Assembly (NCBI GenBank): GCA_002083405.1
Contig: LVWT01000045.1
Span: 17,637 to 81,636 of the forward strand
DNA: 64,000 nucleotides
From: Nitrospira sp. SG-bin2
GTDB taxonomy: Bacteria > Nitrospirota > Nitrospiria > Nitrospirales > Nitrospiraceae
Direction of reading: 5' to 3'
Part shown: positions 3,451 through 58,545 of the stretch, one piece after another
Layout of the letters: every line of letters starts with the position of its first letter
Position numbering within the stretch: the stretch's first letter is position 1
Notes under the pieces: generated by a model
What the model saw: the letters and a program-made list of their open reading frames with translations, nothing else
Database searches by the model: none
What the model was told of the DNA's origin: nothing
Program-made: the position numbers and the translations under genes

Positions 3451-3722
3451 TGCCCATGTGAGCATGCAAACGGCTTGTAAAGTGAGTTCGCGACGTGAAG
3501 CGGCAGATATTCTCTTCCTGGCGAACGGGGTTGAAGGTATGCCAGCCGTGCGATTCAATCAACGCGTAGAGACGATATGTGCCTGCCGGGAAGAGGAGTG
3601 TGTGATTGCCGGATGGTTCGGGATTGGAGCACCTGGGAACGCTACCTGCAATTGACGATGGATGAAAACAAGAAAATAATTCGTGTATGAAAGGTTGTCG
3701 TGTAGAGTGACAGGGAATACAT

Positions 3723-4829
3723 ATGCTGAGCTCATTTAAAAACGTATTCGAGACCGATCTGATCTCATTCCTGACGCCGCGCAAGCAGCTGGTGGGTCTC
3801 GACATCGGATCCAGCGCGATTAAGCTTGTTCAGTTGAGGGAAAGCAAAGGGCGGTACATTCTTCAGAAGTTCGGTGTGAAGCCTCTTGAGCCCGAGGTGA
3901 TTGTTGATGGGACGGTGATGGACGAAGGTCGTGTGGTTTCGGCTATTCGAGAGTTGTTCGATGAGACCGGAGTCAAGAATAAGCAGGTGGCAGTCTCAAT
4001 TTCCGGACACGCTGTCATCGTGAAGAAGATCAGCTTGCCCCCGATGCCGGACGAAGAGTTGGAAGGGCAGGTGAAGTTAGCGGCGGAGCAGTATATCCCC
4101 TTCGATATCAATGAAGTGAATATCGATTTTCATGTGTTGCCAGCCGATCTGTCAGGGGACAAGCAGACAGATATGGCGGTTATTCTCGTTGCTGCGAAGA
4201 AAGACAAGATCAATGAATTGACCGAACTTGTCAAGGGCGCGGGCCTTACGCCGATGATCATGGATGTGGATGCGTTTGCGATCGAGAATATGCACGCCAT
4301 CAATTATCCGATGGCGCAGGATGAAACCACGGCGTTGATCAATATCGGGGCGAGTGTGATGAATGTGAATATCATCCGCGGCGGCGCCTCTCTGTTCACG
4401 CGGGATATTCCATTGGGCGGCAATCGTTACACCGAGGCGATTCAACGCGAGATGGGTATGTCCTATGAAGAGGCGGAAGAAAGTAAACGAGTAGGGAAGG
4501 GAAGAGACTCTGGCGAGGGCGCGATGAGTGCTGTGATGAACAGCATGAATGGCGAGGTCGCTTCTGAGATCGCCAGAACAGTGGATTATTTCAAAACATC
4601 CGCTGCAAATGCCGAGCTGGATCGAGTGCTTGTGTGCGGTGGTGTCGCGCAGGCTAAAGGATTGATCCAGCAACTCGGCGATCGGATGCAAATTCCTGTA
4701 GAGCTGGCCGACCCGTTTAGCGAGATCGATGTGACCGGAAGCGGCATGGATCCAGACCTGTTGGCCGATCTGGCGCCTTCGGCGGCGGTCGGCGTCGGGT
4801 TGGCACTGAGGGCGGTGGGGGACCGATGA
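3723..4829 (+). CDS. pilM: Type IV pilus assembly protein PilM (actin-like ATPase)
   Basis: 368 aa with LVGLDIGSSAIKLVQL and an actin/HSP70-like fold pattern. It is the first gene of a pilMNOPQ block. Confidence 0.9.
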   Translation: MLSSFKNVFETDLISFLTPRKQLVGLDIGSSAIKLVQLRESKGRYILQKFGVKPLEPEVIVDGTVMDEGRVVSAIRELFDETGVKNKQVAVSISGHAVIVKKISLPPMPDEELEGQVKLAAEQYIPFDINEVNIDFHVLPADLSGDKQTDMAVILVAAKKDKINELTELVKGAGLTPMIMDVDAFAIENMHAINYPMAQDETTALINIGASVMNVNIIRGGASLFTRDIPLGGNRYTEAIQREMGMSYEEAEESKRVGKGRDSGEGAMSAVMNSMNGEVASEIARTVDYFKTSAANAELDRVLVCGGVAQAKGLIQQLGDRMQIPVELADPFSEIDVTGSGMDPDLLADLAPSAAVGVGLALRAVGDR

Positions 4830-23329: not shown

Positions 23330-23357
23330 GTGAAACGTGAGGCGTGAAACGTGAGGC
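23330..23357. repeat. Heptamer-period repeat array (GTGAAAC GTGAGGC)x2
   Basis: GTGAAACGTGAGGCGTGAAACGTGAGGC lies in the divergent gap between the two GlnE-type genes. The same family occurs at 30894-30921 and, reverse-complemented, at 54835-54855. Confidence 0.75.
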
Positions 23358-25087
23358 GAAAGCCTGAGAAAGCCGGTAAGTCAGGATCACCGCCCGGGAA
23401 ACTGGTGCCGGGTTTACGGAGGGCATCGACCGGGCCTGATCCGACTCCCGTCTTGCTGGCTGAAGAGCGGAAGCCCGAGCAGATCCGAGCCATTTTATCG
23501 GCCTATGGATTAAGGAATATCGAACAGGCCGACCGCAATCTTGGCACGATGGCCGGGGAACCGCATGAGCGGCGTCAGTTGGCCGAGATCCTTCCACAGC
23601 TGTTAGCGGCCGTCGCGCGGACGGCCGATCCCGATCAAGCACTCAATCATTGGGAACGGCTGTTATCAAACGTGACCCGCTCATCCTTTCTGGACTATCT
23701 GCGCAGTTGGCCGCGCATGGTGGAGGTCCTCGCGACGATTTTTGGCAACAGTGATTCGCTGGCTTTCACGATCGTTCGCGATCCCATGCTGGTCTATTGG
23801 CTGGCTGAGGAATCTGTGCTCTCGAAGCCGGCAACCCGTGCCGACATTGAACAGTCACTGCAAAAGCAGCTGGCCAGGTTGACGGCGAAGGAGTTGAAAC
23901 TGGATGTGTTGCGCCGGGTGCGGCGGCGGGAGATGTTGCGGATTGGTGTGCGCGACCTGCTGCGCATGGCCGACGTGCCGGAGACCATGGCAGCCCTCTC
24001 CGATTTGGCCGGTGCCTTAATTCACGCAGCCTATCAGGTGGTGGATGCGGACTTGCGCTCCCTCTACGGCGTTCCCATGCATAAGAACCGGCGGGGGAAG
24101 TGGGTGGAGACCGGCTTTGCCGTGATGGGGATGGGGAAACTCGGCGGTCATGAGCTGAATTACAGCTCCGACGTTGATCTGATCTACGTCTACGCGTCGC
24201 ATGAAGGAGAAACGAGGGCCCTGCGCGGAAAGCCAGCCGGGAAGCCGGCGGGTGCCGGTATTTCCAGCGAGGAATATTTTGAAATCCTCTCGCGCGAGCT
24301 GACCAAGGCGCTGGTCGAACAGACCAGAGAGGGGTACGTCTTTCGTGTGGATCTGCGTCTGCGGGCCGAAGGGTCCGTCGGGCAGTTAGCCCGCTCGCTG
24401 GCGGATTACAAAAAATATTACGAGACCAGAGGCATGGCGTGGGAACGATTGGCGCTCCTGAAAGCCTGGCCGGTGGCAGGGTCGACGGCGGTGGGGCAGG
24501 CGTTCTTGAAAATGGCCAGGCCGTTCATTTTTGGCGTGGGGAAGATGGATTGTGATGGAGCGCTGGCGATCGTGCAGAATGTGCGGGCGGTGAAGGAGAT
24601 GATCGATGCGAAGATGGCCGAGCGCGGCCATGAGCGGCGCAATGTGAAGCTTGGAATCGGTGGCATCAGGGAGATCGAATTTCTCGTGCAGACGGTACAG
24701 GTGTTGGCGGGGAGGCAGGCGCCGGCGCTTTTCGACCGCAGCACGCTCGGGGCGCTGCCCCGGTTTGTGACACGCAGGCTGCTCTCGGGCCGGGAGCGTG
24801 ATGAGCTGACGGCGGCGTATCTCTTTCTACGCGATGTCGAGCACAAGCTTCAGATGGTCCATGACCTCCAAACCCATGCGCTGCCGGATGAGACGGAGGA
24901 GTTGGAGCGTTGCGCCATCCGTGGGGGCTACGACGGCAGCGATCGGACTGCTGCCGTGAAGAAGTTCCTGGCGGATCATGCGGCCCATACGGCTGCCGTG
25001 CACCGGGCGTTTCAGTCGCTCTTCTATGAACCTACTACGTCGTCGGTATTCAAAGCGACTCTTCGGGTCATGGGAGCGAAGGGCTGA
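23351..25087 (+). CDS. glnE: GlnE-type glutamine synthetase adenylyltransferase/adenylyl-removase, single nucleotidyltransferase module
   Basis: 578 aa with the NTase motif GMGKLGGHELNYSSDVDLIYVY and GlnE helical domains. The start is uncertain because the GTG at 23351 lies inside the repeat array. Confidence 0.8.
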   Translation: MRRKPEKAGKSGSPPGKLVPGLRRASTGPDPTPVLLAEERKPEQIRAILSAYGLRNIEQADRNLGTMAGEPHERRQLAEILPQLLAAVARTADPDQALNHWERLLSNVTRSSFLDYLRSWPRMVEVLATIFGNSDSLAFTIVRDPMLVYWLAEESVLSKPATRADIEQSLQKQLARLTAKELKLDVLRRVRRREMLRIGVRDLLRMADVPETMAALSDLAGALIHAAYQVVDADLRSLYGVPMHKNRRGKWVETGFAVMGMGKLGGHELNYSSDVDLIYVYASHEGETRALRGKPAGKPAGAGISSEEYFEILSRELTKALVEQTREGYVFRVDLRLRAEGSVGQLARSLADYKKYYETRGMAWERLALLKAWPVAGSTAVGQAFLKMARPFIFGVGKMDCDGALAIVQNVRAVKEMIDAKMAERGHERRNVKLGIGGIREIEFLVQTVQVLAGRQAPALFDRSTLGALPRFVTRRLLSGRERDELTAAYLFLRDVEHKLQMVHDLQTHALPDETEELERCAIRGGYDGSDRTAAVKKFLADHAAHTAAVHRAFQSLFYEPTTSSVFKATLRVMGAKG

Positions 25088-29842: not shown

Positions 29843-30387
29843 AGGTAGGGATGAAGCCTCGGAAGGAACTGCGCAACGCAGCTGGGTTCAGGTTCGGCAT
29901 CGTCGTTGCGACGTTCAACAAGCTGGTGACGGACAGATTGCTTTCCTCCTGCCTCGATGGTCTGACCAAGCAGGGCGTGAAGGAAACGGACGTCGAAGTG
30001 GTCCGGGTTCCGGGTGCCTTCGAAATCCCGCTGGTCGCGCGAACGTTGGCGAAGTCGGGCCGGCTCAACGCGGTGATTTGCCTGGGGGCGGTCATTCGCG
30101 GGGACACGCCGCATTTCGACTTTATCAGCGCCGAGGCAAGCCGCGGAGTCGGCCAGGCTGCGCTGGACTCCGGAGTGCCGGTAATTTTTGGAGTGCTGAC
30201 GACGGATACCGAGACGCAAGCCATCGAGCGGGCCGATCCCGGCACGTTCAACCGAGGCGGTGAGGCGGCAAAGTCGGCGATCCAAATGGCGACGGTGATG
30301 CGGATGTTGAAAGGAGAGGCTGACAGATCGGCAAGTTCCAGGCTGACAAGCGGGACGGTCAAGCGTCAAGGCGGGAGAACGCGATGA
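29839..30387 (+). CDS. ribH: 6,7-dimethyl-8-ribityllumazine synthase
   Basis: [12 protein letters not shown] and [11 protein letters not shown]. The last ~22 codons ([22 protein letters not shown]) extend beyond the usual RibH end and are encoded by the GCTGACA repeat array. Confidence 0.9.
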
Positions 30388-30475: not shown

Positions 30476-30928
30476 ATGGGATCTCGCCACGAAGCTCGCG
30501 AGCGGGCATTGCAGATCCTCTTTCAGTATGACATCCATGGAAAAGCGGGACTCTGGCTGGAAGAATTCTGGAAGCCGCTGAAGGCTGATGAAGAGACAAA
30601 GGCCTTTGCGGAGCGGCTGGTCACGGGGGTACTGGAGAAGAAAAAAGAGCTGGATCAGCTGATCGGCAGGTACGCCGTGAATTGGACTGTCGCCCGCATG
30701 CAGATCGTCGACCGGAATATTTTACGGATCGGCGCCTATGAGCTGCTGTGGTTGAACGAGGTGCCGGCCAAGGTGACAGTGAATGAGGCGATCGAGCTCG
30801 CCAAAGATTTCGGCGACGACGAAGCCGCGAAGTTCGTGAACGGTATTCTGGACAAGGTGTTGTCGTCCGAGCAGCGGCTTGAAGTTAAAAGACGTGAGGC
30901 GTCAGGCGTGAAACGTGAGGCGAAATAA
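30476..30928 (+). CDS. nusB: Transcription antitermination factor NusB
   Basis: [19 protein letters not shown] plus the conserved ribH-nusB order. The C-terminal tail ([12 protein letters not shown]) is encoded by the heptamer repeat. Confidence 0.88.
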
Positions 30929-36071: not shown

Positions 36072-36210
36072 AGGGAGCCTCTCTATAAATAAATCCTGCT
36101 CTCCAACTAATGACCAAAGGCCTCATTGCCTTGGATAATCTGATGGATGACGAGTATTGGAAGATCGTTGAGATTTCAGGCTGTGAGCCAAATCTGATGC
36201 GGAGGCTACG

Positions 36211-36480
36211 ATGATTCCAATTGAGTTTGATGCGATCATTTTCCAGGAGGGTAAGAGCTTTGTGGCTCACTGCCCCGAGCTGGATGTTTCCAGTTGTGGG
36301 CATAATGTGGATGAGGCGAGAGGCGGCTTGAAGACTGCCGTACGCTTGTTCATTGAAGAGGCGGAAAAGCTCGGTACCTTGGACGATATTCTGAAAGAGG
36401 CTGGGTATTTACGGGGGGCTGACGGTAAGTGGAAGTCGCCGCGCATTGTTGCCACTGAAGTGATGTCGTTGGCGGTTTAG
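36211..36480 (+). CDS. hicB: HicB-family antitoxin
   Basis: 89 aa with FDAIIFQEGKSFVAHCPELDVSSCGHNVDEARGGLKTAVRLFIEE, the HicB N-terminal pattern. It lies immediately upstream of a HicA-like ORF. Confidence 0.6.
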   Translation: MIPIEFDAIIFQEGKSFVAHCPELDVSSCGHNVDEARGGLKTAVRLFIEEAEKLGTLDDILKEAGYLRGADGKWKSPRIVATEVMSLAV

Positions 36481-36485
36481 CCCCG

Positions 36486-36716
36486 ATGTCACGCATTACC
36501 GCAATCCCGGCATGGAAGCTGCGAAAAGTTATGGAAAAGGCGGGTTTCAAATGTGTGCGAACTGAGGGCGATCACTCTGTGTATGTAAAACCAGGCGTGG
36601 CGAGGCCGGTGGTGATACCCGATTGGGACGAAGTGCCAGTGTTCATCATCAAGAACAACTTGCGGACGGCAGGAATTTCGCGCGATGAGTATTTCGAACT
36701 CTTGGGCAAGGTCTAG
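36486..36716 (+). CDS. hicA: HicA-family mRNA interferase toxin
   Basis: 76 aa with KLRKVMEKAGFKCVRTEGDHSVYVKPG...VVIP, the HicA dsRBD-like pattern with a catalytic His. Confidence 0.7.
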   Translation: MSRITAIPAWKLRKVMEKAGFKCVRTEGDHSVYVKPGVARPVVIPDWDEVPVFIIKNNLRTAGISRDEYFELLGKV

Positions 36717-36727
36717 ATAGGTAGGCA

Positions 36728-38965
36728 ATGAAAATCGACGGTCATATCATCACCAAAGACCTTATCGCGCAGCATAATCTGACGGACGATGAGTACAAGA
36801 AGATCATCGAGATTTTGGGGCGCGAGCCGAATCTGACGGAACTCGGGATGTTTTCCGTCATGTGGTCGGAACATTGCTCCTATAAGAGTTCGCGCGTCCA
36901 TTTGAAGAAGCTGCCGACCACCGGGCCTCGTGTGGTGCAAGGGCCCGGTGAAAATGCGGGCGTGGTAGATATCGGGGATGGATTGTGTGTGGTCTTCAAG
37001 ATGGAATCTCACAACCATCCGTCGTTCATCGAGCCCTATCAGGGGGCGGCGACCGGGGTCGGTGGAATTTTGCGGGACGTGTTTACTATGGGCGCGCGGC
37101 CGATTGCGTTGCTCGATTCACTTCGCTTCGGCGGGCTGGATACGCCGAAGAATCGACATCTCATGAAAGGTGTCGTCGCCGGCATCGCCGGCTATGGCAA
37201 CTGTATGGGCGTGCCGACGGTGGGCGGTGAGATTGTCTTCAACGACATTTACTCGCTCAATCCGCTGGTGAATGTGTTTTGCCTGGGGATTGCCAAGAAA
37301 GACAAGATTTTTCTGGGGACTGCAGCGGGAGTCGGCAACCCGGTGATCTATTTCGGCTCGAAGACGGGTCGTGATGGGATTCACGGCGCGACGATGGCAT
37401 CCGATTCCTTCGACGATGAGTCCGAGCAAAAGCGACCCACGGTGCAGGTGGGCGATCCATTTCAGGAGAAGCTGCTGCTTGAAGCCTGTCTCGAGTTGAT
37501 GGCCGGCGATTTGCTGGTCGGGATTCAAGACATGGGCGCAGCCGGCTTGACGAGCTCATCCTGCGAAATGGCTTCGCGCGCAGGAAACGGGATGGAGTTG
37601 GATTTGACCCATGTTCCGCGCCGTGAACCCGGTATGACGCCGTATGAGTTGATGCTGTCGGAGTCGCAAGAGCGGATGTTGATGGTCGCGAAGGCCGGCA
37701 AAGAAGACGCGTGCATCGCGATCTGCCGGAAATGGGATCTGGATGTCGCAGTCGTTGGAACTGTCACAGGCGACGGGATCTTGCGTGTGAAGGATCAGGG
37801 GAAGGTCGTGGCGGAAATTCCCGCCAAATCGCTCGCTGATGACGGGCCGCGCTACGAACGGCCCTATCAGCCGCCTGAGTATCAGGACATGCTGACGAAT
37901 CTGAACTATGACCTTCTCCCGGACGTGAAAGATGCGAATGCGGCGCTCCTGTCGCTGTTGGAGTCGCCGACGATCGCCAGCAAGCGATGGGTGTATCAAC
38001 AGTACGATCATATGGTGCGGACCAACACGATGATCCGCCCAGGATCGGATGCGGCGGTGGTCCGGATCAAGGGCACGAATAAAGCCGTGGCAATGACGGT
38101 CGATTGCAACAGCCGGTATTGCATGTTGCATCCCTACGAAGGCGCGCGGATCGCTGTGGCTGAAGCCGCGCGCAATCTGGCATGCTCGGGCGCCGAACCG
38201 ATCGGGCTGACCGATTGTTTGAATTTCGGCAATCCCGAACGGCCTGAGATCATGTGGCAGTTCGTGCTTGCGGTCGAAGGCATCAAAGACGCATGCGAGC
38301 GTCTCGCTGTTCCGGTCGTCAGCGGGAACGTCAGCTTTTACAATGAGACCAACGGGCTGTCGATCTATCCGACTCCTATGCTGGGCATGGTGGGATTGAT
38401 TGAACAAGCCGATCAGACCATGACGCAATGGTTCAAGCAGGATGGTGACGAGATCATTCTGTTGGGGGCGACTCGTGAAGATTTGGGCGGATCGGAATAC
38501 TTGAAGATCATTCACGCCCGGGAACAGGGGTCGCCGCCGTTGTTGAATATGGATGCTGAAAAGGCACTGCATGAGTGTGTGCTGGCGCTGGTGCGACGTG
38601 GATTGGTCCAATCCGCGCACGATTGCTCGGACGGCGGATTGGCCGTGACATTGGCGGAGAGCTGCTTCTCAGGACAGGATCGGAAGCTGGGTGCCGTGGT
38701 AAGATTAGCCCCGGGCCGGATTCGCAGAGACGCGGTGCTTTTCGGCGAAAGCCAATCCAGGGTGGTGCTTTCGGCCAAACCGTCCCATCGGCAGGCAATT
38801 CTTGATCAGGCCAAAAGTCTGGGCGTGCCGGCAGAAGTCATTGGGTCGGTGACGGGCGCACGACTGACGATCAGTCTGGGTGATGTGACCATGGTGGACG
38901 TGCCAGTTGCGACGCTCCATGACCGATGGGCGTTATCGATCGAACGGACACTGAACCAAGAGTAG
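36728..38965 (+). CDS. purL: FGAM synthase II, large subunit PurL
   Basis: 745 aa with [29 protein letters not shown]. It starts 11 nt after the hicA stop. Confidence 0.95.
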
Positions 38966-50111: not shown

Positions 50112-50435
50112 ATGGGCTTATTGCAGCGACTCAAAGACGATTTGCGGACAGGCATCGCGACCTTGCGTCTGGGAACCGTGCATGCGGCCGGCCGCGCGCT
50201 GGAAGAGACGGAACTACTTCGGATGCGGCTGGAAGCCCGCAAGCTGGACCAGCAACTCTCCGATCTCTATAAGGATATCGGTGAGCGGGCCGTCGATATG
50301 AAAGAACGCGGCGAGACAGCGGAGCGCATCATCCACGATGCAGAAATCGGCCGTCTCGTTCGAGAGGTGCAGGCGCTCAAGGAGTCGCGCAAGAAACTGG
50401 AAGCCGAAATGGACGAGATCCGGAACGAGCAATGA
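50112..50435 (+). CDS. Coiled-coil hypothetical protein
   Basis: 107 aa, highly charged and helical, with a 4-nt overlap onto the ppx-family gene start. Confidence 0.5.
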   Translation: MGLLQRLKDDLRTGIATLRLGTVHAAGRALEETELLRMRLEARKLDQQLSDLYKDIGERAVDMKERGETAERIIHDAEIGRLVREVQALKESRKKLEAEMDEIRNEQ

Positions 50436-51388
50436 CCGCCCCGCCTGCCCGTATGCGTCGATTAGCCGGAATCGACATCGGGACTCTGACCTGCAGGCTT
50501 CTCATCGCAGATCTTTCTCCACCGGCACCTCTCAAAGCACTCCGATCCGAGCGGCGCATTCTCCGGCTGGGGGAGGGCGTCGATCAAACCAAACGACTCA
50601 ACGCTGCGGCCATGGATCGGGTGATCGCGTGTCTGCAGGAGTGGCGAGATCTCATCGACAGCCATCAGGTCGATGCAGCCACGGCTGTCGCGACCAGCGC
50701 GGTCCGGGATGCGGTCAATCGCGATGAATTTCTCCGACGACTGAGACAAGAGACAGGATTCGACGTCGAAGTCATCACGGGCGAGGAAGAAGCCCGGCGG
50801 ACTCTCCTCGGCATTCGTTCCGGTTTGCCCGCCGGAGTCACAGACATGATCGCGTTGGACATTGGCGGCGGCAGTACGGAATTCATTCTGGACCGGCCAG
50901 GCCAGGTCCCGATCGTCCGCTCCATCGACATCGGTGTGGTGCGTCTATGCGAGAGAGTACTGACACATGACCCGCCGACGGCGGAAGAAATAGAGCAGGC
51001 ACGGGACTGGGTGCGAGGCGAGACTCAAGCCGCCGTCGTCGGAATGGAGGGCTCTCAGTCTGCCACCTTCGTCGGAACCGCCGGCACGATCACCGCGCTT
51101 GCTGCCATGGCGCAGAAGCTGCCTGCCTATGAACCGCCCCGCATCCATAACTACCGGCTGGCCATTACTACGGTTCAGGAAATCGAACAGACCCTGTTGA
51201 GCCGTAAGAAGGCCGATCGTATCGGTCTCCCGGGCCTCGAACAGAACCGCGAAGAAGTTATAGCCGCCGGTGCCATCATCATCCGAACGATCATGGAGAC
51301 GCTGAGGATGTCGAGTGTGCTGGTGAGTGATCTGGGATTGCGGGAGGGCGTGCTGATTGATCTGGCGAGGAGGATGGAGTATCGGTAA
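50432..51388 (+). CDS. Ppx/GppA-family exopolyphosphatase / pppGpp phosphohydrolase
   Basis: 318 aa with the ASKHA motifs LAGIDIGTLTCRLLIADL and ALDIGGGSTEF. Confidence 0.85.
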   Translation: MTAPPARMRRLAGIDIGTLTCRLLIADLSPPAPLKALRSERRILRLGEGVDQTKRLNAAAMDRVIACLQEWRDLIDSHQVDAATAVATSAVRDAVNRDEFLRRLRQETGFDVEVITGEEEARRTLLGIRSGLPAGVTDMIALDIGGGSTEFILDRPGQVPIVRSIDIGVVRLCERVLTHDPPTAEEIEQARDWVRGETQAAVVGMEGSQSATFVGTAGTITALAAMAQKLPAYEPPRIHNYRLAITTVQEIEQTLLSRKKADRIGLPGLEQNREEVIAAGAIIIRTIMETLRMSSVLVSDLGLREGVLIDLARRMEYR

Positions 51389-51436: not shown

Positions 51437-51459
51437 GCAGTTTGGTGGGAGGAACCGTC

Positions 51460-51801
51460 ATGGCAATTTCAAAGATGACCCGTCGTCGAGGGAGAGAACC
51501 AAAGATCATGGTTGCCGATCCTCTGCTCACGGTCCTCCTCGCCAAAGACAGCGGCCACTATTGCGCCAAGTGCCCAGAGCTGGATCTTGTGACGGAACTT
51601 CCGACCGCCGACGCTGCCTTAGAAGATCTGATTGAAGCTATTCGGGACTATGCGAAAGAATATCTTCGCGACCGCGACCGATACGCCACGAGTCCGAACC
51701 GAGCCCACCATGTTCCCTATATCGAGGCCATCGCTGCTTGCAAGACTGATTGGGAGTTGCGGACACTGATCGAGATCAAGCATGGCCTCGTTCACGTATA
51801 A
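51460..51801 (+). CDS. hicB: HicB-family antitoxin
   Basis: LTVLLAKDSGHYCAKCPELDLVTELPTADAALEDLIEAIRDYAKEYL is a HicB-type N-domain. The start was chosen for its GGGAGG RBS. Confidence 0.6.
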   Translation: MAISKMTRRRGREPKIMVADPLLTVLLAKDSGHYCAKCPELDLVTELPTADAALEDLIEAIRDYAKEYLRDRDRYATSPNRAHHVPYIEAIAACKTDWELRTLIEIKHGLVHV

Positions 51802-52021
51802 CGATTTCCGTGTTGTGCTTAGGCGCGCGGGGTTCGAACATCTCCGATCGGAAAAGCACGAAACCTGGCGAAAGTTCCTGCCGAACGGGTCGATTCTGCG
51901 TGTCCGGATTAGCCATCAGCACAAGCGCGACATTCTCAAGTGGTTAGTCCATGAAATGCTTCGACAAGCAAGACTGATTTTAGGAGAATTCAGCACGGGC
52001 GCTTTTGGAAGCACAACATAG
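51782..52021 (+). CDS. hicA: HicA-family toxin
   Basis: 79 aa with FRVVLRRAGFEHLRSEKHETWRKFLPNGSILRVRISHQHKRDI, the HicA pattern. It overlaps hicB by 20 nt. Confidence 0.65.
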   Translation: MASFTYNDFRVVLRRAGFEHLRSEKHETWRKFLPNGSILRVRISHQHKRDILKWLVHEMLRQARLILGEFSTGAFGSTT

Positions 52022-52037
52022 TGGCATCGCCGCTGGC

Positions 52038-52736
52038 GTGATCAGTTTAGAAACTGGGAAAGTGCTGGTTATTTTGAATATCGATTCTGCTGCTGACTAC
52101 CTCCTGCGTACCGAAAGTGCAGCGCGGACGTTATTAGATGGCATAGGGGCATATGTTGCTCTATTGAAGCATGCTCCATTACCGGTGTTCGGGGGGTCGT
52201 TCTCGGATGAAAAGGTTGCCCGTATTGCGTTTGATCATTGGTCAACTAAGAAAGATAAGCGGATTCAACTTTCGCTCAAGTCTCAGCGGGAATTTTTAGC
52301 TGAAAGCTTCGCTCTCGCAACATTATGCGGCTGTCTGCTTCAAATCGCTGCTAAAGGCATTGAATGGTTCTCCAACAATACAGATATTCCATTCGATTTC
52401 GGTTCTGTAATCAAACCTTCGTCGTCGGCTGTGCCATTTTGTATCGGGCGTCGTGTCCGAGGTGTTCCTGTCGGCTTGGTCATCTTTGCTGGCCGCAATC
52501 AGTTTGCGCATTTGAATGAACGGGAACTTCGAGAGCCTAATGCGACAATATTTGAACGCCTTGCGGTGAATCACAGACAAACACAAACGATGGAGGGTCA
52601 TTTTAAGGATCCGGCTTTTGATCTTCAGAACGGACAGTTGGTCAATTTCGCAGGCAACGTCACAGGTCTGCTTGGTTGGCGGAATCATGATGCCTACGCG
52701 ACCGATATGCGTCAGTTACTCGGGGGTGAAGAGTGA
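52038..52736 (+). CDS. Hypothetical protein with HEPN-like RNxxxH motif
   Basis: The open frame runs 52005-52736 in low-GC DNA. There is no ATG near the 5' end, so the start could be GTG 52038, GTG 52062 or TTG 52005. The motif is FAGRNQFAHLNE. No family recognised. Confidence 0.5.
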   Translation: MISLETGKVLVILNIDSAADYLLRTESAARTLLDGIGAYVALLKHAPLPVFGGSFSDEKVARIAFDHWSTKKDKRIQLSLKSQREFLAESFALATLCGCLLQIAAKGIEWFSNNTDIPFDFGSVIKPSSSAVPFCIGRRVRGVPVGLVIFAGRNQFAHLNERELREPNATIFERLAVNHRQTQTMEGHFKDPAFDLQNGQLVNFAGNVTGLLGWRNHDAYATDMRQLLGGEE

Positions 52737-52774
52737 TAAATAATTGAGGACTTATTTGTTTCGAGGAGGCACAA

Positions 52775-53305
52775 TTGAATAATGACCATAATCCATCTCG
52801 ACGGATTTTCTGTGGCCATTTCCATGTTGCGAAGACGTCCTTGATAGGCACAGCTTTGCTAATGGCGTTTCTTTTTGGGATTTGTGACAGCGGGCTTGGT
52901 CAGGAACAACCACTAAATCATAAACCAATTTGGACTGCCGTCGATAAACTGTTCTGTCGAGGCCAAAATATGTTTACTTGCTCGTTTGAAGATCCAATAA
53001 GTTGTGATCAGAGTAAATCCAGCGCCTCTGTGACGATAAATTTCGCGGCGAGAGTCCTCGAATTTCACGGTGCTTATCGAGGTGGTGGTACGATTAAGTC
53101 AGTGGCATTTGCAGATAGTCTTAACCCGATGCAGACGATACTTCTAGACGATAATAGGGTAGTCCATCTTGCGCATTACAAATTCCATGACCGGCTGGAG
53201 ATTTCAGGGTATCTCTTAGATGCTGAGAATGTTGCCTACGCAAATCCCAAAGAAACAATAAAGAGAGGGGCTTCGGGCCACACTCTTATATGCTTTCCAG
53301 AGTAG
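52775..53305 (+). CDS. Hypothetical exported protein
   Basis: 176 aa. The TTG start is preceded by GGAGG at 5-6 nt. It has a hydrophobic signal (LIGTALLMAFLFGI) and several Cys residues. Confidence 0.5.
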   Translation: MNNDHNPSRRIFCGHFHVAKTSLIGTALLMAFLFGICDSGLGQEQPLNHKPIWTAVDKLFCRGQNMFTCSFEDPISCDQSKSSASVTINFAARVLEFHGAYRGGGTIKSVAFADSLNPMQTILLDDNRVVHLAHYKFHDRLEISGYLLDAENVAYANPKETIKRGASGHTLICFPE

Positions 53306-53355
53306 AGAGAAAAACTGATGCGGGGACGCTTTCAAGTGTTCAGAAAGGAATAGCG

Positions 53356-53688
53356 GTGCGCTTCTTGATAGGTCTTTCAATTTGTCTGGCCTTGTCTGCT
53401 TGTCTCCAAAAGACAAGGGATTTGACGGAAGTGGAGCACGGTGAGCTAATGCAATATCGGAATATGCTCATTGAACAAGCCAGAGCGGGTAAATTGAGCG
53501 AGGAGCAATATCACTGGTCACTGCTTGAGGAGGAGTGTCGGATAAGAGGGGGGTGTAGCGAGCAGTACAAGAGAGGTTATTGGAACGCCTACAGGCGATC
53601 GAAGGGATTGCCTGAAATTCAGAGCCCTCCTCATTTTGTTTGCTCACAAGTAAGCTCGGGCAATTATTCAACCATCGTGTGTCAGTAA
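53356..53688 (+). CDS. Hypothetical lipoprotein
   Basis: The GTG start has an AAAGGA RBS. The signal carries the lipobox LALSAC. The mature part is Cys-containing and helical. Confidence 0.5.
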   Translation: MRFLIGLSICLALSACLQKTRDLTEVEHGELMQYRNMLIEQARAGKLSEEQYHWSLLEEECRIRGGCSEQYKRGYWNAYRRSKGLPEIQSPPHFVCSQVSSGNYSTIVCQ

Positions 53689-53765
53689 GAGCGGCAACGG
53701 TGCCCTTTGTAATGCCGTGAGTGCGACAGCTCAGCCTGTTCCCTTTTCTCGGACTTGGTGTGCTT

Positions 53766-54374
53766 ATGAAAAGTTGTCAAGCTGCCGGAGAGCGATTCTT
53801 CAGGGTGTACCATAAGCATTGTGTCAAGCCTGACAAGGACACGCTGTTCAATCTCCTCAATTCCACTCATGGTCTGAACGACAAAGTTCGAAAGGCAACT
53901 GGCGGGCATTTCTTCGGCTGCAACGAATTTATAGCGTTGAAGGCACTGCGAAATCTATTCCATCATGAAGTCGAGCTGGTCAATGAAGTGCGAATCATCC
54001 CAGTCGAAAAGTTGCCGCTTCTAAGCACCGACAGTCCATTCCTGTGCCTGGTGCCTCGCGATCTTGTTCTGCAGTCATTTGCGCAGCTTGAAAGAAAGAG
54101 GCGCGTGCATGAGGAAGGCATCATTCGCAGTACGCTGAAGTGGTACGGAAATGTTGTCAATATCAATCCCTGCTTATTCAACTTTGCAGTTCATGTATTT
54201 GAGAAGTTGAAGACTCTTGGCGTCCAAGTCGGCGGAGACGAATACGCGGAATTCCAAGCAAGCTACGAGTTCGAAGACGAGACTGGGCACTCCCACTTCA
54301 TTGCCGGAGACATCATTTGCCATGCAGGAAGTGTTGAGCAGGTTCTGGCGGTGGCATTCGAAAATGTCATCTAA
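53766..54374 (+). CDS. Hypothetical protein with HEPN-like RNxxxH motif (Abi-like?)
   Basis: 202 aa from the ATG at 53766. The motif FIALKALRNLFHHEVELV resembles the RNxxAH motif of Abi_2/other HEPN families. It sits in low-GC DNA. Confidence 0.55.
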   Translation: MKSCQAAGERFFRVYHKHCVKPDKDTLFNLLNSTHGLNDKVRKATGGHFFGCNEFIALKALRNLFHHEVELVNEVRIIPVEKLPLLSTDSPFLCLVPRDLVLQSFAQLERKRRVHEEGIIRSTLKWYGNVVNINPCLFNFAVHVFEKLKTLGVQVGGDEYAEFQASYEFEDETGHSHFIAGDIICHAGSVEQVLAVAFENVI

Positions 54375-54480
54375 CTCCATCATCGACGGAAGTCATAACG
54401 AGGCGTGCTATAGCGATGACCAGGGTCATTGCTTGACTTGACACCAGAGCGACTAACGTACACTGCTGGTCTGATCAATC

Positions 54481-54765
54481 ATGAAGAAGAAAACGACGAA
54501 GTCCAGCGGCAATGTGTTTGTCGATCTTGGGTTCGATCCAGCTGAAGCGGCGGTGCTCCAAATGCGTTCCAATTTCATGAGCGATCTTCGTCTCTATATC
54601 GAGAAGCAGAAGTTAACTCAAGCCGAAGCGGCCAAGCGACTTGGGATCGCACAATCCCGCGTGTCCGATCTTGTTCGTGGGAAATGGGACAAATTCAGCC
54701 TCGAAATGCTCATTATGCTTGAGGCACGCTTCGGACGGACGATTCGGGTTGAATTCGCAGCGTAA
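54481..54765 (+). CDS. XRE-family HTH protein of the antitoxin-associated HTH_37 type
   Basis: 94 aa with an N-terminal NVFVDLGFDPAEA, then LTQAEAAKRLGIAQSRVSDLVRGKWDKFSLEMLIMLEARFG. This architecture is normally found downstream of RelE/Gp49-type toxins. Confidence 0.8.
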   Translation: MKKKTTKSSGNVFVDLGFDPAEAAVLQMRSNFMSDLRLYIEKQKLTQAEAAKRLGIAQSRVSDLVRGKWDKFSLEMLIMLEARFGRTIRVEFAA

Positions 54766-54834
54766 TTCAGACTCCCAAATTGGGAGCGGCGGCGGGACCC
54801 TTTTACTGCGCGTATCAGAAAAATTGGCATCCGC

Positions 54835-54855
54835 GCCTCACACCTGACGCCTCAC
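54835..54855. repeat. Heptamer repeat (reverse complement of GTGAGGC GTCAGGT GTGAGGC)
   Basis: GCCTCAC ACCTGAC GCCTCAC lies immediately distal to the displaced methyltransferase 3' fragment. Confidence 0.7.
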
Positions 54856-54856
54856 G

Positions 54857-54904
54857 TCATTTCTGCGAATACCACCGATAGCTTTTTTGCTCCGTGAACT
54901 GAGC
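54857..54904 (-). pseudogene. Displaced copy A of the 3' end of the 57055-58545 methyltransferase gene
   Basis: It encodes AQFTEQKSYRWYSQK-stop, compared with AQFTEQKGYRWYSQK-stop in the intact gene. About 42 of 48 nt are identical by hand alignment. Confidence 0.65.
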
Positions 54905-54987
54905 TAGGCGAGGGAGCCCGATGCAGGAAGTCCTGTTTGACTTATCGCTACTGACGCCATAATATTTGCCTGCTCGAAGGGAGGCAT

Positions 54988-55326
54988 ATGGATCAGGAAT
55001 CGCTTGCCCAAATTCAACAGATTGTCGGCGCTGCGACCGAAGCCCTTCGGGCAGATCTTACCGGGACCCTTCGCACTGAAATTGCCGATGCGAAACGCCA
55101 CACAGGCGTCCTTACTGAAGGACTCCGGCATGAACTTCAGCTTGTGGCTGAAGGCTTCCAGATACACCTCGATCGGCGTCATGCCGATGACCGTGAGCAT
55201 GTGGATAATCAATTCAGAGAAACTCGTGCGCTCATCCAACTCTCCTACGGTCAGATACAAGAACGAGTTGAGCGGTTGGAACAGCGGGTCCGCACCATCG
55301 AGCAGCATCTCGGTCTCACCGTGTAG
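54988..55326 (+). CDS. Coiled-coil hypothetical protein
   Basis: 112 aa with a GAAGGGAGG RBS and a heptad-rich sequence. It lies between 3'-end copies A and B. Confidence 0.5.
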   Translation: MDQESLAQIQQIVGAATEALRADLTGTLRTEIADAKRHTGVLTEGLRHELQLVAEGFQIHLDRRHADDREHVDNQFRETRALIQLSYGQIQERVERLEQRVRTIEQHLGLTV

Positions 55327-55348
55327 CCTCCTCAGTAATGCTTCAACA

Positions 55349-55441
55349 TCTGTGACTGCCATCGATAGCCTTTTATTCCGTGAGCTGAGCTTTCGGTGCG
55401 CCGCCGGGGTTTTTCAATAACATGACTTTCAAGTCTGTGAG
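55349..55441 (-). pseudogene. Displaced, decayed copy B of the 3' end of the methyltransferase gene
   Basis: It reads LTDLKVMLLKNPGGAPKAQLTE-stop, compared with LLDFKVLLLEKPGGAPKAQFTEQK... in the intact gene. Identity is roughly 80% over ~93 nt with 2 indels. Confidence 0.6.
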
Positions 55442-55493
55442 ATAAACCAAGCGGAGTCGGGAGGTCGTTACAGTTGCAGGATGGCAGTTGCCT

Positions 55494-55910
55494 CTAGCGG
55501 GTGCGGAGCAGAGCGACAAACCCTTCCTGTTCAAAATGCCGATCGGTCGTCAGAGCTTCGGATAGATGGCGTTCACGCATGAGCAGCATCGACCCGCAGT
55601 CGGTCAGGCTGTATCCTTTGTCCGGCCTGGATTTGTAGAAGGCGAGACTGCGGCTGAATGTGCGGCGACTTTGCGGAATCACTGTGACTCGTGAATTGTT
55701 CATGATTGCTTCGACCATTTCAACTGCGGCGGCGCGGACATGAGGTCCTTTGTCGGCCAAGGCATGGAGAAACTCGGTAAGGACTGCTTCTGTCGTGAAG
55801 AGGCGGCAGTGTCCCAACGCGGAGGACACTTCGACAGCTTTAGCGTGATATTGGTCGAAAGAATTCGTGAGGGCGATCCAATAAACGGTGTCTGCGAAGA
55901 GGCGCTTCAC
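55494..55910 (-). CDS. vapC: PIN-domain toxin VapC
   Basis: 138 aa with FADTVYWIAL (first acidic residue), TTEAVLTEF, SLTDCGSMLLM and LTTDRHF. Confidence 0.8.
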   Translation of the reverse strand: MKRLFADTVYWIALTNSFDQYHAKAVEVSSALGHCRLFTTEAVLTEFLHALADKGPHVRAAAVEMVEAIMNNSRVTVIPQSRRTFSRSLAFYKSRPDKGYSLTDCGSMLLMRERHLSEALTTDRHFEQEGFVALLRTR

Positions 55911-56110
55911 GTTCCCTTGCTGCCGTAGAGGTAGTGGTCATGGTGAGCGGCGAGATCTGTGGGCAGTTTATGGAGGTCAGGTTCAGGAATAGTCCGGGCG
56001 ATGCGCAAGATTTCTTCCCACACCGGGCGAGGCTTTCTTTTCTTGAGGGAGGAGGCGCTTTTTCGCCCACGTTTGGGGACTCTCGTGCGTACAGTCGATC
56101 GCGTGCTCAT
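55907..56110 (-). CDS. vapB: VapB-type antitoxin (non-AbrB type with C-terminal HDHYLYG motif)
   Basis: 67 aa from the ATG at 56110 with a 4-nt overlap onto vapC. The LPTDLAAHHDHYLYGSK tail recalls antitoxins found upstream of PIN genes. Confidence 0.5.
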   Translation of the reverse strand: MSTRSTVRTRVPKRGRKSASSLKKRKPRPVWEEILRIARTIPEPDLHKLPTDLAAHHDHYLYGSKGT

Positions 56111-56338
56111 GATGGGTGGAATTATAGCGGGTAACATCTATGTTGTCCAAAGGTGGCTAGCCCTTGCAACTCATGCTTCCCGGTCTACCTCCGCGAGTAC
56201 CATTGATGGTGTTGGTCCTCGGTGAATCGCGCTTTCGACGCGCCGCCTGGTTCGTTGGTGTGAGAATCCTGTCGAAGTTGCCCCTGGGTGCAGAGTCTTG
56301 TACACTTCCTGCCGTGTGCCAATTTAGGAGTTCAGGCG

Positions 56339-56536
56339 ATGCCAGGAAATTCCGGTCAACCAGATGATGCGAAGATTGCCGACAATTTGCGTTGCGCCAT
56401 CGAGTTGACAGAGCTCGGATTACGTCTGCGTAGTGCAGTGCTGCAACAGAATAAGCCTCAGGGCGATGCCATGGTACAAGTCATGCGCGAGATTCGCCGC
56501 GCAAAAGAGCAAGCATGGCAGAAGAATCACTCTTAG
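56339..56536 (+). CDS. Small helical protein, putative partner of the downstream nucleotidyltransferase
   Basis: 65 aa from the ATG at 56339 (TAGGAG RBS). It overlaps the next ORF by 22 nt. Confidence 0.45.
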   Translation: MPGNSGQPDDAKIADNLRCAIELTELGLRLRSAVLQQNKPQGDAMVQVMREIRRAKEQAWQKNHS

Positions 56537-57048
56537 CTCAGACCCTCTCGACTCTCATCACGGACTTCAATCGACGCGATATTCAGTATGCGCTGGCCGG
56601 AGGTTGGGCCTACAGCGCGTTGGTTGAGCCGCGAGCCACGACTGATATCGATGTCCTTCTGTTGATGGAACAGCCTTCCCGCGATCGGCTACAGGCGCTG
56701 CTCTCGTCCCTTTTTGATTCGACCATCGTTCATCCGGCCGCGATGGTCTTTCATGGCATTTCGATTTGGCGATGCGTGGGCGTTCTCAAAAACCAGGAAG
56801 TCGTAATCGACATACTGTTGGCCGATTCCGAATATCTGCAGACAGCCCTGTCGCGTCGTCGGCGGATTCTGTTAGGAGATTTGCCGGTATCGATTCTGAC
56901 ACTGGAAGATTTGATTCTGCTCAAGACGCTGGCTGGTCGGCTTCAAGATCAGGCCGATCTTGAGAAAATCAGACTTCGTCAAGACGAACTTCATATTGAT
57001 TGGGCGTATGTCGGGGAATGGAAAGCAAAGCTGGGTCTTGCCCGATAA
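56515..57048 (+). CDS. Minimal nucleotidyltransferase-fold protein
   Basis: 177 aa with LAGGWAYSALVEPRATTDIDVLL (a GG...DxD NTase motif) and C-terminal LEDLILLKTLAGRLQDQADLEKI. Confidence 0.65.
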   Translation: MAEESLLAQTLSTLITDFNRRDIQYALAGGWAYSALVEPRATTDIDVLLLMEQPSRDRLQALLSSLFDSTIVHPAAMVFHGISIWRCVGVLKNQEVVIDILLADSEYLQTALSRRRRILLGDLPVSILTLEDLILLKTLAGRLQDQADLEKIRLRQDELHIDWAYVGEWKAKLGLAR

Positions 57049-57054
57049 CCTGTC

Positions 57055-58545
57055 CTATTTCTGTGAATACCACCGATAACCTTTTTGCTCCGTGAACTGC
57101 GCTTTCGGCGCGCCGCCCGGTTTTTCCAGTAACAACACTTTGAAGTCGAGGAGGCCGAACCAGGCGGGATCGGCGACGTCGTGGTAGTGCGTACCCTGGA
57201 TCTTGGGGAGCATGTCGCCGAGGGTCTGTTTGAGTTCCGGTTCCGTGTAGGCGCGGATGACGAACGGCTTGTCGATGGCCTGACAAAAGCGTTGAATCGT
57301 ATAGGCTGCGCCGGTGCAGAGGACCTTCGTGTCCGGTTTGAGTCCCAGAAATTGCGGGAGCGAGAGATACCGTTCCTGAAAGCCGAGCCAACGCGCAACA
57401 TGCCGCAGCTGGCTGTATTGCACTTCATATTCGGTATGGCCCGGCAGCTTCACCGGCGCGGGCCAGCCTTCGTCGATTCCAAACTCTGAGAGAAAGGCAT
57501 GTCCGCCCGGTTTCAGGACTCGCCAGAGTTCCGCCACAAAGCGGGTCGGTCCCAGGTTGAAGATGACCTCTTCGGGCAGATCGGTTCCGATCGGAAGGCG
57601 CGCGCGCCTGATCCAATCCAGGGCTTCCTGGTGCTGTGCGGTTTCGCCACGGCCTGACGAGAGTTCCTGTTTCGTCAGCTTCACCGGCGTCATGTCGGCC
57701 ATGTTTTCGTTGTCGATGACCACATCGACGGAGTGGTCTGTGAAGGGAAGCGCTTCGCCGTTTGCTTGTGTGCCGATGACATTCCACCCTCCGGCCTTGG
57801 CGCGGGAGACTTGCCGCTTCAAGAACGGACCGGTGATGTCGAGCGAGCAATAGGTCATACCCTGTTTCTCGAACGGCAGAAGTTCTTTGCCTAACTCGCG
57901 TGCGACGTAGCCGAGGCCCCCGCCGATTTCCACGATCATGCGCGGTTTGGGGGTAAACCAGCCCAGCTTGCGGAGTTGTCGCATCAGGAGCCGGCCGTAG
58001 GTCAGGCCGTTGAGGGCTTCGTTCGGCTCCCGGAACAGATGCGAGACCGTCGTCTCGATGACATCGAAATGGCCGTCGTCATCGGCGGCCTGGCTCAGTT
58101 CATGATGGTGGAAGTCTTCCAGATGTGCTTCGCCCTCGAATCCTTCCTGCCCCGACCAGCCTTCGCGGATTTGTTGCAGCAGAAGGTCCCATTTCCCTTT
58201 GTGCCGATGGCCACCCGGCGGTTCGGTGCCGTAATAGCAGAGCGAGAAGTTTGGCGTCGCCCATCGCTCCAGGTGCCAGAGCCCCGGCTGGCCGTCCGGT
58301 CCGCAGATCTTGCGCCCATATTGTTCAAGCAAGGCGCCGACGGTTGTGTGGCCGTTCATCGCGCGGAGCATGTTCAGGCCGGTCCTGTTCAGTCGTATCA
58401 GCGGAAGATTGTCATCAAGCGGGGCGAACCACCATTCGTCTCCATGGTGCTGATAGGCGACGAGATCGGGGATGTGCCAGGCGAAGAGATTCAACGTCTC
58501 TCCGGTCAGATTCAGTGGTTCTTGGATAGCAGTGACAGGCTTCAT
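57055..58545 (-). CDS. Class I SAM-dependent methyltransferase with N-terminal PqqD/RRE-like domain
   Basis: 496 aa. LPLIRLNRTGLNMLRAMNGHTTVGALLEQYG fits the PqqD-family pattern (LNxTgxxiwxlxdGxxTvxxl). The SAM motif is IVEIGGGLGYVAREL, and the C-terminal part is a helical/beta region. Confidence 0.8.
   Translation of the reverse strand: MKPVTAIQEPLNLTGETLNLFAWHIPDLVAYQHHGDEWWFAPLDDNLPLIRLNRTGLNMLRAMNGHTTVGALLEQYGRKICGPDGQPGLWHLERWATPNFSLCYYGTEPPGGHRHKGKWDLLLQQIREGWSGQEGFEGEAHLEDFHHHELSQAADDDGHFDVIETTVSHLFREPNEALNGLTYGRLLMRQLRKLGWFTPKPRMIVEIGGGLGYVARELGKELLPFEKQGMTYCSLDITGPFLKRQVSRAKAGGWNVIGTQANGEALPFTDHSVDVVIDNENMADMTPVKLTKQELSSGRGETAQHQEALDWIRRARLPIGTDLPEEVIFNLGPTRFVAELWRVLKPGGHAFLSEFGIDEGWPAPVKLPGHTEYEVQYSQLRHVARWLGFQERYLSLPQFLGLKPDTKVLCTGAAYTIQRFCQAIDKPFVIRAYTEPELKQTLGDMLPKIQGTHYHDVADPAWFGLLDFKVLLLEKPGGAPKAQFTEQKGYRWYSQK

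Follow-up and report, generated by a model that had tools for sequence, protein, structure and literature searches.

Cassettes bracketed by copies of a core-gene terminus in an insertion hotspot of Nitrospira

Tandem accretion at the 3′ end of a gene is known from cis-mobilizable elements (CIMEs), for example those found with ICESt1/ICESt3 at fda in Streptococcus thermophilus (PMC5704250). CIMEs are decayed integrative and conjugative elements (ICEs) or integrative and mobilizable elements (IMEs), and a related integrase acts on their short att sites (PMC5704250). Here we describe an array in a 64,000-nucleotide stretch of Nitrospira sp. SG-bin2 (contig LVWT01000045.1, positions 17,637 to 81,636; hereafter the window), in which small cassettes are stacked behind a gene for a class I methyltransferase (MT) and each is bracketed by copies of the 3′ end of that gene. 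As in CIMEs, the units are in tandem, lack recombination and transfer genes and stand behind a conserved gene, and new arrivals displace the older ends. The Nitrospira cassettes are flanked by attL/attR-like repeats and carry no integration or transfer genes. Unlike CIMEs, the units are single operons of 0.45-2.5 kb with repeats of 50-140 nt, several unrelated gene termini are used, and no integrase was seen in ~120 Nitrospira hotspot loci.

In Dehalococcoides, islands at ssrA insert at a defined point and have repeats of ~20 bp. A CcrB-like serine recombinase module is present in 16 of the islands, and some of them are without an integration module and are thought to be mobilised in cis (PMC3146451). 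The array resembles these islands, as well as the staphylococcal cassette chromosome islands SCCmec and pseudo-SCC, in having tandem units behind a single-copy gene, each bounded by a direct repeat of its 3′ end. SCCmec/pseudo-SCC composite islands occupy the 3′ end of rlmH (orfX) and use ccr serine recombinases. The islands of both systems measure kilobases to tens of kilobases. Unlike in both of these systems, the Nitrospira target is the gene for a 496-aa class I methyltransferase rather than ssrA or rlmH, and no resolvase or recombinase family was found.

Integrons and clusters of attC sites lacking integron integrases (CALINs) are made of small cassettes separated by repeated attC sites of ~60-140 nt. 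CALINs have no integrase, and the cassettes are mostly promoterless and co-oriented. The Nitrospira array shares with them small, mostly single-gene or toxin-antitoxin (TA) cassettes between repeated sites that are homogeneous within one array, as well as stabilisation by TA modules. It differs in that there is no IntI and no attC hairpin, and in that the MT gene itself lies upstream of the array. In addition, the Nitrospira repeats are the coding end of a neighbouring core gene, and the cassettes have promoter-like sites of their own and the orientations +, - and +. Modules of the IMEX (integrative mobile elements exploiting Xer) and pdif type are recombinase-less, often TA, and moved by a housekeeping recombinase at a 28-bp dif-like site, with pdif orientations that alternate. 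The Nitrospira cassettes are likewise recombinase-less, often TA modules bracketed by repeated sites, but their repeats are unrelated gene ends, all of them direct and with no motif common to the four targets, and there is no GC-skew switch at the locus (the sign is constant across 44-64 kb of the window). Unlike transposons with target-site duplications, the array has no transposase, cassette termini are not conserved between contexts, and the repeats vary from 50 to 167 nt.

In Campbell-type integration, a circular DNA that carries a gene fragment enters by one crossover and becomes flanked by direct repeats as long as the fragment. When the fragment is 3′-terminal, as in some suicide plasmids, the gene is left intact and a 5′-truncated copy lies distal to the insert. 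This insertion-duplication is exactly the layout seen in Nitrospira. To our knowledge, Campbell-type insertion is a laboratory tool or an occasional event and not a recurrent natural route of building arrays at core genes. Direct repeats of the target gene's 3′ end together with a restored gene, the hallmark of integration at gene 3′ ends, were found here, and a literature search for a cassette architecture based on gene-end repeats found nothing specific. Apart from what integrons and large mobile elements account for, the transfer of TA and small defence modules from one chromosome to another is largely unexplained. In a widespread nitrifier genus, we found arrays of single-operon cassettes whose only common feature is a copy of the terminus of the neighbouring core gene.

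An insertion hotspot behind the methyltransferase gene

The target of the array is the MT gene (57055-58545, minus strand), which encodes a 496-aa class I S-adenosylmethionine-dependent methyltransferase (Pfam Methyltransf_11/25). Its 268 homologues all come from Nitrospira/Nitrospirota, are ~496 aa long and share the C-terminus DFKVLLLEKPGGAPKAxFTExKGYRWYSQx. Copies of the gene end were sought in the whole window with the last ~110 nt of the intact end by single-sequence nhmmer, and with a profile made from 80 intact Nitrospira MT ends. Four copies (C, D, B and A) were found on one strand, and between them lie three cassettes, each bracketed individually. On the plus strand the order is A, coiled-coil gene, B, vapBC, D, small open reading frame (ORF) plus nucleotidyltransferase (NTase), C.

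Copy C (57055-57165, minus strand) is the working MT 3′ end, with stop codon TAG, and is the proximal repeat of the array; in the profile search it covers 57048-57204, which are profile positions 1-157. Cassette 1 (56253-57054, plus strand) is a putative TA pair transcribed toward the MT gene. It has a promoter-like sequence, TTGCCC-17-TACACT (56278-56306, plus strand), that is conserved among homologous operons, and two plus-strand ORFs, one of 65 aa (56339-56536) and an NTase of 177 aa (56515-57048), with weak DUF6036/AbiEii matches. Copy D (56178-56252, minus strand) is a displaced MT 3′ end that covers profile positions 83-157 (nhmmer E=4.8e-8; single-sequence E=6.3e-6), matches C at 49/68 positions and translates as EPGGASKARFTEDQHHQWYSRR followed by a stop. 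Cassette 2 (55475-56177, minus strand) is vapBC, with vapB at ~55907-56110, a vapC PIN toxin at 55494-55910 that was recognised by its PIN domain and TIGR00028, and the promoter TGGACA-17-TATAAT (56149-56121, minus strand; 11/12 in the promoter scan). Copy B (55336-55474, minus strand; profile positions 17-158; E=3.9e-22, single-sequence 1.5e-13) is identical to C at 99/131 positions and is decayed, with a CAA to TAA internal stop and compensating indels. Cassette 3 (54906-55335, plus strand) has the promoter TTGACT-17-TAATAT (54937-54965) and encodes a 112-aa coiled-coil protein (54988-55326) for which Pfam/NCBIfam-type scans gave no family match. Copy A (54852-54905, minus strand; profile positions 102-155; E=3.9e-9, single-sequence 1.1e-8) ends in TGA and is identical to the resident end at 43/49 positions. 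By junction alignment, it is a long-class junction (see below) that has lost ~58 nt internally.

Directly past the stop codon of copy A is a pair of octamers resembling repetitive extragenic palindromic (REP) elements, CGCCTCAC-N6-CGCCTCAC (54834-54855, plus strand), with a start-to-start spacing of 14 nt; the same element lies past the intact MT stop codon in the relatives' loci L002 and L003 (L-numbers label the loci of relatives throughout). Further on is an orphan HTH_37/HigA-like antitoxin gene (54481-54765, plus strand; Pfam HTH_37 E=1.8e-18). It is what is left of a Gp49/HigB-HigA cassette that stands directly behind MT in L002 and L003; the toxin partner of the HTH_37 antitoxin is present in L002 and L143.

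An earlier note on this window had reported three same-strand copies. All three are present at or near the places it gave, far beyond chance, but copy D had been missed and the actual number is four. The internal stop and the indels of copy B were borne out, and the copy itself proved to be longer than claimed. Copy A was likewise recovered, though not as a clean 50-nt copy in view of its internal deletion, and the heptamer REP reported behind it is indeed a small dispersed repeat, in the form of the octamer pair. A cassette of ~1.6 kb as a single unit did not hold up: since copy D lies between vapBC and the small-protein/NTase pair, this segment is two cassettes.

The array is not an assembly artefact: the gene order is the same in five independent assemblies (NCBI, ENA, JGI and two Logan runs) whose MT protein is identical. 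It is also exceedingly improbable that the fragments are the remains of full-length paralogous methyltransferase genes, or chance similarities, both of which the earlier note had raised against its own proposal. The decayed state of copies B and D is all that speaks for this explanation. The E-values run from 1e-8 to 1e-22, and single-sequence nhmmer found no significant MT-like sequence in the window beyond A, B and D. Furthermore, the displaced copies in all 81 loci compared (80 Nitrospira genome loci with 10-kb flanks, and the window) end at the stop codon, have clustered 5′ ends and reach at most ~140 nt into the gene; decayed paralogues are excluded since no copy reaches further. About 40 metagenome loci were examined as well.

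The 80 genome loci share a conserved synteny, cupredoxin - MT -> <- ppx <- recG, in which MT and ppx are convergent. In the window, the hotspot is closed by ppx (50432-51388, plus strand; Ppx/GppA phosphatase, Pfam E=4e-70), and the MT-ppx gap is 5.7 kb with a GC content of 0.45-0.55, compared with 0.58-0.62 in the flanks. Among 57 closed gaps, measured from stop to stop, 10 were empty (<=60 nt, including one 18-nt overlap), 9 were 60-300 nt, 8 were 0.3-1 kb, 11 were 1-3 kb and 19 were 3-8 kb; the range extends from -18 or 8-50 nt in empty sites to 7.9 kb. The space between MT and ppx is an insertion hotspot in Nitrospira that is filled by serial insertion of 0.45-2.5-kb cassettes, most of which are TA or defence genes with their own promoter. 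Each insertion is found at the MT stop codon, with a direct copy of the gene's last 50-140 nt beside it; the gene stays intact, and the old end is displaced downstream, dead. Serial insertion at the MT terminus, as the earlier note had proposed, is therefore upheld by displaced ends that lie on one strand and downstream with clustered 5′ ends, and by the empty sites in relatives.

Displaced gene ends and their junctions

There were 45 displaced MT-end copies in 24 of the 81 loci, with a maximum of five in L009. Every one of the 45 is on the MT strand and downstream of the gene, and extends to the stop codon plus 0-13 nt. By their 5′ ends, two classes can be told apart: a long one, dispersed over positions 10-44, and a short one, tightly grouped at positions 78-88; copy B is of the long class and copy D of the short class. 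Frameshifts or premature stops were found in 24 of the 45. Mismatches to the resident end are enriched at the third codon position (168, 141 and 362 at positions 1, 2 and 3), and many displaced copies resemble MT ends from other lineages more than their own. This codon-position bias and the affinity to other lineages' ends indicate that displaced copies are former working gene ends, some of them foreign. Some copies are mosaic, for example L009 cc2. At near-invariant positions, decay along the copies is flat at ~8%, edge effects aside, with no step. A young event was seen in L035, where a higBA cassette is flanked by a 136-nt repeat with 129/131 identical positions, whose end falls exactly on the stop codon. 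Together with a pair in L146 that is 152/155 identical, it points to recent events.

Cassettes were found to be shared between genomes. The coiled-coil cassette is present in 12 of the 80 genome loci. In 11 of 13 aligned instances, a long-class MT-end copy lies behind it, joined by the same junction sequence; none was detected there in L003 or L078. The NTase cassette occupies the MT site in 13 of the 80 genome loci and in ~40 metagenome loci. Its distal copy, where one survives, is of the short class and directly adjoins the cassette promoter; ~9 metagenome loci lack it. Homologues of the vapBC cassette occur in L009, L011 and L094. The cassette order is NTase-vapBC-coiled-coil-HTH in the window, HTH-NTase-MNT-coiled-coil in L003, NTase-coiled-coil directly before ppx in L091, NTase-PF10136 in L010 and PF10136-NTase in L049. 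Across genomes, a given type of cassette keeps its own junction to the distal copy in both position and sequence.

This constancy bears on the idea that each insertion, by a start or stop codon, generated a long target-site duplication (~50-165 nt) through staggered breaks or template switching. Such a mechanism would explain why the same TA operon is found at different targets, flanked in each case by a duplicate of the local gene and not by any remnant of the other target's sequence, and it would suit the near identity of young pairs and the variable duplicated lengths. At MT, however, the junction is constant per cassette type across genomes and array positions, and it must therefore have been inherited and not re-made at each insertion. 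The cassettes also have no gene in common that could encode such an activity. We regard this explanation as improbable.

The REP octamers and then the HTH cassette come after the intact MT end in L002 and L003, a stretch that is collinear with 54905-54473 of the window at 85-87% identity. Because of this collinearity, the 3′ part of copy A was once a working gene end, and the lineage of the window has since gained three cassettes proximal to it. The earlier note had taken copy A as the original chromosomal terminus. This is supported for its 3′ part, but its 5′ part belongs to the junction of the coiled-coil cassette and not to the chromosome. The type of stop codon was also found to travel with the downstream cassette. 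TAG is linked to the NTase cassette, in copy C of the window and in a displaced copy of L003, and TGA is linked to REP-HTH, in the intact ends of L002 and L003 and in copy A. Not only the TAG stop but also the last ~45 nt of copy C agree with the displaced copy ahead of the NTase cassette in L003. In pooled comparisons of the last 10 nt, copies with the same downstream cassette mismatched at a rate of 0.13, compared with a baseline of 0.30. These data fit the proposal, made in the same note, that the current MT C-terminus is derived from an element; the present gene end probably arrived with the most proximal (NTase) cassette. For annotation, this means that a gene end in current use may have come in with a cassette.

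The copies were also inspected for structure. DNA folding of both strands of C, B, D and two relatives' copies gave no attC-like fold (z-scores of -1.7 to +0.6 relative to shuffled sequences). Antisense to the MT gene, a GC-rich palindrome, CGGCGCGCCG, with a T-run behind it, is present at 57100-57130 in copy C and at 55391-55409 in copy B (plus strand). It could be a putative terminator of convergent ppx or cassette transcripts; taken as a whole, the terminator scan did not exceed chance expectation. It is at this palindrome that the short-class copies begin. A conserved 55-nt segment beside the short-class copies, AAGTGTACAAGACTCC..GGAGCAAC, was considered as an att arm and rejected since it is the -10/-35 region of the NTase operon; it is conserved at the unrelated 417-aa-gene site described below too. 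Position ~106 of the copies was likewise rejected as a recurrent crossover site, since the breakpoint there is due to a REP/MITE-like (miniature inverted-repeat transposable element) insertion. This second element, GGGCAACCAGACYGCCCTTTGTGCTCGCGCAACGCGC with an inverted partner, was found in 29 sequences collected and is inserted into MT-end copies (L016:7409-7500, L064:8725 and 9697, L036:14355, L037:4837), with five insertions at the same position (~106), beside the microhomology GAAAGC. The window has one copy of it near 30092-30109 (plus-strand coordinates). A single MT-end copy, L095:2680-2780, was found inverted out of the more than 100 from genome and metagenome loci.

Repeats at other gene termini and the route of insertion

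The same architecture was found at other gene termini. The ppx 3′ end is duplicated (108-159 nt, ppx strand) in six loci (L005, L035, L049, L051, L053 and L063), around cassettes of ~0.55-1.2 kb that are higBA in four loci, with at least three junction types (e.g., L035:14564-14709). A RelB-like cassette stands directly behind ppx in the window and behind a displaced ppx end in L051. These duplications mirror the MT-end arrays from the opposite side of the hotspot. Elsewhere in the window, a decayed, ~75% identical copy of the purL 5′ coding region (36106-36200, plus strand; source 36743-36840; blastn E=2e-9) precedes a hicB-like gene (36211-36480) and a hicA toxin gene (36486-36716; both plus strand; HicA_toxin Pfam E=2e-10). 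This hicB/hicA cassette has the purL 5′ copy on one side and the purL start (36728) on the other. It is a TA module bracketed by a gene-terminus repeat, here of a 5′ end.

A metagenome scan with the NTase protein recovered the MT hotspot many times. It also revealed the same small-ORF/NTase operon (65-68% aa identity) behind, and co-directional with, the gene for a conserved Nitrospira hypothetical protein of 417 aa with 1352 homologues (L142, L146, L149, L150, L154, L155 and L166). There, direct repeats of 125-167 nt, made of the 3′ end of the 417-aa gene and ending at its stop codon, stand on either side of the operon; the nearly identical pair of L146 mentioned above is at 3505-3659 and 4580-4734. 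Between MT and the other contexts, only the promoter and genes are common, and the cassette termini differ. No motif common to the MT and ppx repeats was found; the MT profile, when run against ppx ends, finds only physically overlapping MT ends. A further locus, L143:2671-5915, has four direct copies of another 100-190-nt repeat whose source gene is off the contig, and these separate a Gp49/HigB-HTH_37 cassette, an NTase cassette and a third cassette.

The earlier note had read the locus after the manner of integration at transfer RNA (tRNA) and transfer-messenger RNA (tmRNA) genes. Serial insertion stands, but one integrase acting on one att site is weakened as a model, since there are several unrelated targets and the same NTase operon occurs at two of them. 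No tRNA, tmRNA or other Rfam family was found in the window that could be the real target. The lack of a recombinase in the cassettes, noted earlier, was confirmed and extends to the whole 64-kb window, where Pfam scans found no integrase, resolvase or transposase family, and to the filled gaps of relatives, where none was found by Pfam in 10 large and ~30 further gap ORFs from 47 filled hotspots. Beside ~40 metagenomic arrays, none was seen by gene content; Pfam scanning there was not exhaustive. What the gap ORFs and the island do contain are TA families (PIN, HTH_37, Gp49, HepT, Polbeta/MNT, HicA and RelB-like), defence-type domains (TIR/CAP12, Mrr_cat, FRG, DUF4145 and DUF4209) and, in the gap ORFs, others such as TPR, Sel1, FGE-sulfatase and MltC. 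Elsewhere, the window holds housekeeping genes (rpoN, pil, glnA, rib, purB, purL, recG, etc.). No related ICE or IME was seen at the MT site in the 80 loci with their 10-kb flanks. A phage or viral source of an attP was rejected too, since the MT-end core is absent from viral contigs in exact and degenerate pattern scans.

The best explanation, which we hold with middling confidence, is host homologous recombination of the Campbell type through the gene-end copy that each cassette carries, with no dedicated integrase. A cassette would travel together with its gene-end copy as portable homology, and a circular or linear cassette-plus-copy molecule could recombine with any copy of the MT end already in place by the host's homologous recombination machinery. 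One crossover with a circle that carries the cassette and a 3′-terminal fragment would give intact gene, cassette and 5′-truncated copy. Alternatively, a linear donor with gene, cassette and copy could enter a naive gene end by two crossovers, as in transformation. Recombination between copies would then excise cassettes, reorder them and exchange them between lineages. New junctions between cassette and gene end would arise by rare illegitimate events at several core-gene termini, which would explain why 5′ boundaries vary and why there are several targets. Addiction to the TA modules would let cassettes survive despite direct repeats that would otherwise delete them, and would explain the enrichment in TA modules. 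Direct repeats that equal a gene fragment beside an intact gene were found at the MT, ppx, purL and 417-aa gene termini, and the repeat length of 50-165 nt is at or above what RecA-type recombination needs. If portable homology is the right explanation, it would be a simple, enzyme-free route to the capture and shuffling of cassettes and would account for hotspots without mobile-element genes.

Several observations weigh against host recombination. Copies within one genome are often only 70-88% identical and would be poor RecA substrates. Statistical mapping of crossovers was underpowered, as cassettes and MT ends are about equally diverged, and linkage to the downstream cassette extends over no more than the last ~10-30 nt. 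Neither circles nor excision products nor polymorphism within the strain were observed, and the five assemblies of the strain are identical in the array. The short-class 5′ boundaries of different cassettes lie within ~10 nt of each other (78-88), adjoining the GC palindrome; such clustering is not obviously expected of random founding events and could mark a recombinase site. Repeats that end within a few nucleotides of the stop codon also fit the attP design of integrative elements. A trans-acting recombinase is possible elsewhere in the ~4-Mb genome, of which the window covers 64 kb. Finally, a PF10136 'SpecificRecomb' gene, which encodes 714-742 aa, is present in the hotspot of five relatives. 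It fills the gap in L008, L022 (11516-13660) and L057, is bracketed by MT-end copies in L010 (12387-14615) and is also found in L049. N. moscoviensis has PF10136 in its hotspot. It is the only gene in the hotspot whose name suggests recombination, and it is not in the window.

The main rival takes up several of these points and holds that the cassettes are non-autonomous site-specific elements with an attP that mimics the MT 3′ end, moved in trans by a tyrosine or serine recombinase, or by PF10136. Integrase accretion is classically recognised by a tandem series of direct repeats of a gene 3′ end, all on one strand and each reaching to the stop codon. The low identity of many intragenomic copies, the clustered short-class boundaries and the PF10136 genes, one of them copy-bracketed, would also agree with the rival. 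In addition, positions ~88-150 are common to all complete copies and, as read from sequence, include an imperfect inverted repeat, CACCGAGA-N8-TATCGGTG. We nevertheless consider this rival unlikely. No recombinase was found in the scanned cassettes of 24 genomic and ~40 metagenomic arrays or in the window, and the viral pattern scans speak against it as well. At least four unrelated target sequences have the same architecture, with the same operon at two of them, and the repeats are far longer than known core sites and variable in length. PF10136 as a bona fide recombinase was rejected, since the protein has strongly hydrophobic, membrane-type segments in its C-terminal third and no solved relative, and the literature does no more than repeat the name. 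Its gene could be cargo or actor.

Both the target-duplication mechanism above and a fossil origin are less likely than a recombinase in trans. According to the latter, larger integrase-bearing islands integrated serially and decayed to a TA module plus attR, and nothing is mobile today. The frameshifts and stops in 24 of 45 displaced copies, the truncation of several copies by REP/MITE-like elements, the identity of the array in five assemblies and the non-bracketed low-GC genes in the window's island are in line with such decay. It is hard to reconcile with identical compact cassette boundaries and varied orders in many genomes, which independent decay is not expected to give, with the lack of any integrase-bearing intermediate in the ~120 hotspot loci (80 genome and ~40 metagenome), or with the near-identical pairs in L035 and L146, which indicate recent events. 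A fossil origin is therefore judged improbable.

Host recombination through carried gene ends can also be placed in a wider frame, which we offer as plausible but tentative. The arrays would form an integron-like, integrase-free system in which core-gene termini serve as portable sites and the agent is either host homologous recombination or an unrecognised enzyme, with PF10136 as a candidate. Promoter-bearing TA and defence cassettes may be captured, stacked, reordered and exchanged through the MT, ppx and 417-aa gene 3′ ends and the purL 5′ end.

Other features of the locus

The remaining low-GC variable island extends from ppx to the array (51442-54480), and no MT-end copies were detectable in it. 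Directly behind ppx is a RelB/PHD-like gene (51442-51801) with a weak, overlapping HicA-like gene (51782-52021), and the same cassette was found in L051 and L063. The four further ORFs, of 243, 176, 132 and 217 aa (52005-54374), lie in the lowest-GC part of the island (0.45-0.50); neither Pfam nor NCBIfam gave a match for them, and they are not flanked by MT-end copies.

The octamer CGCCTCAC occurs 10 times in the window, compared with 3.2 expected. Besides the pair behind copy A, pairs were seen at 23337/23351 (spacing 14 nt, span 23337-23358) and at 30894/30915 (21 nt, span 30894-30922).

Two mechanically called ORFs on the minus strand, 55373-55534 (ending in ..DLKVMLLKNPGGAPKAQLTE and a stop) and 56185-56322 (ending in ..EPGGASKARFTEDQHHQWYSRR and a stop), terminate in dead MT C-termini. 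Dead gene ends of this kind are likely to be mis-annotated as small genes.

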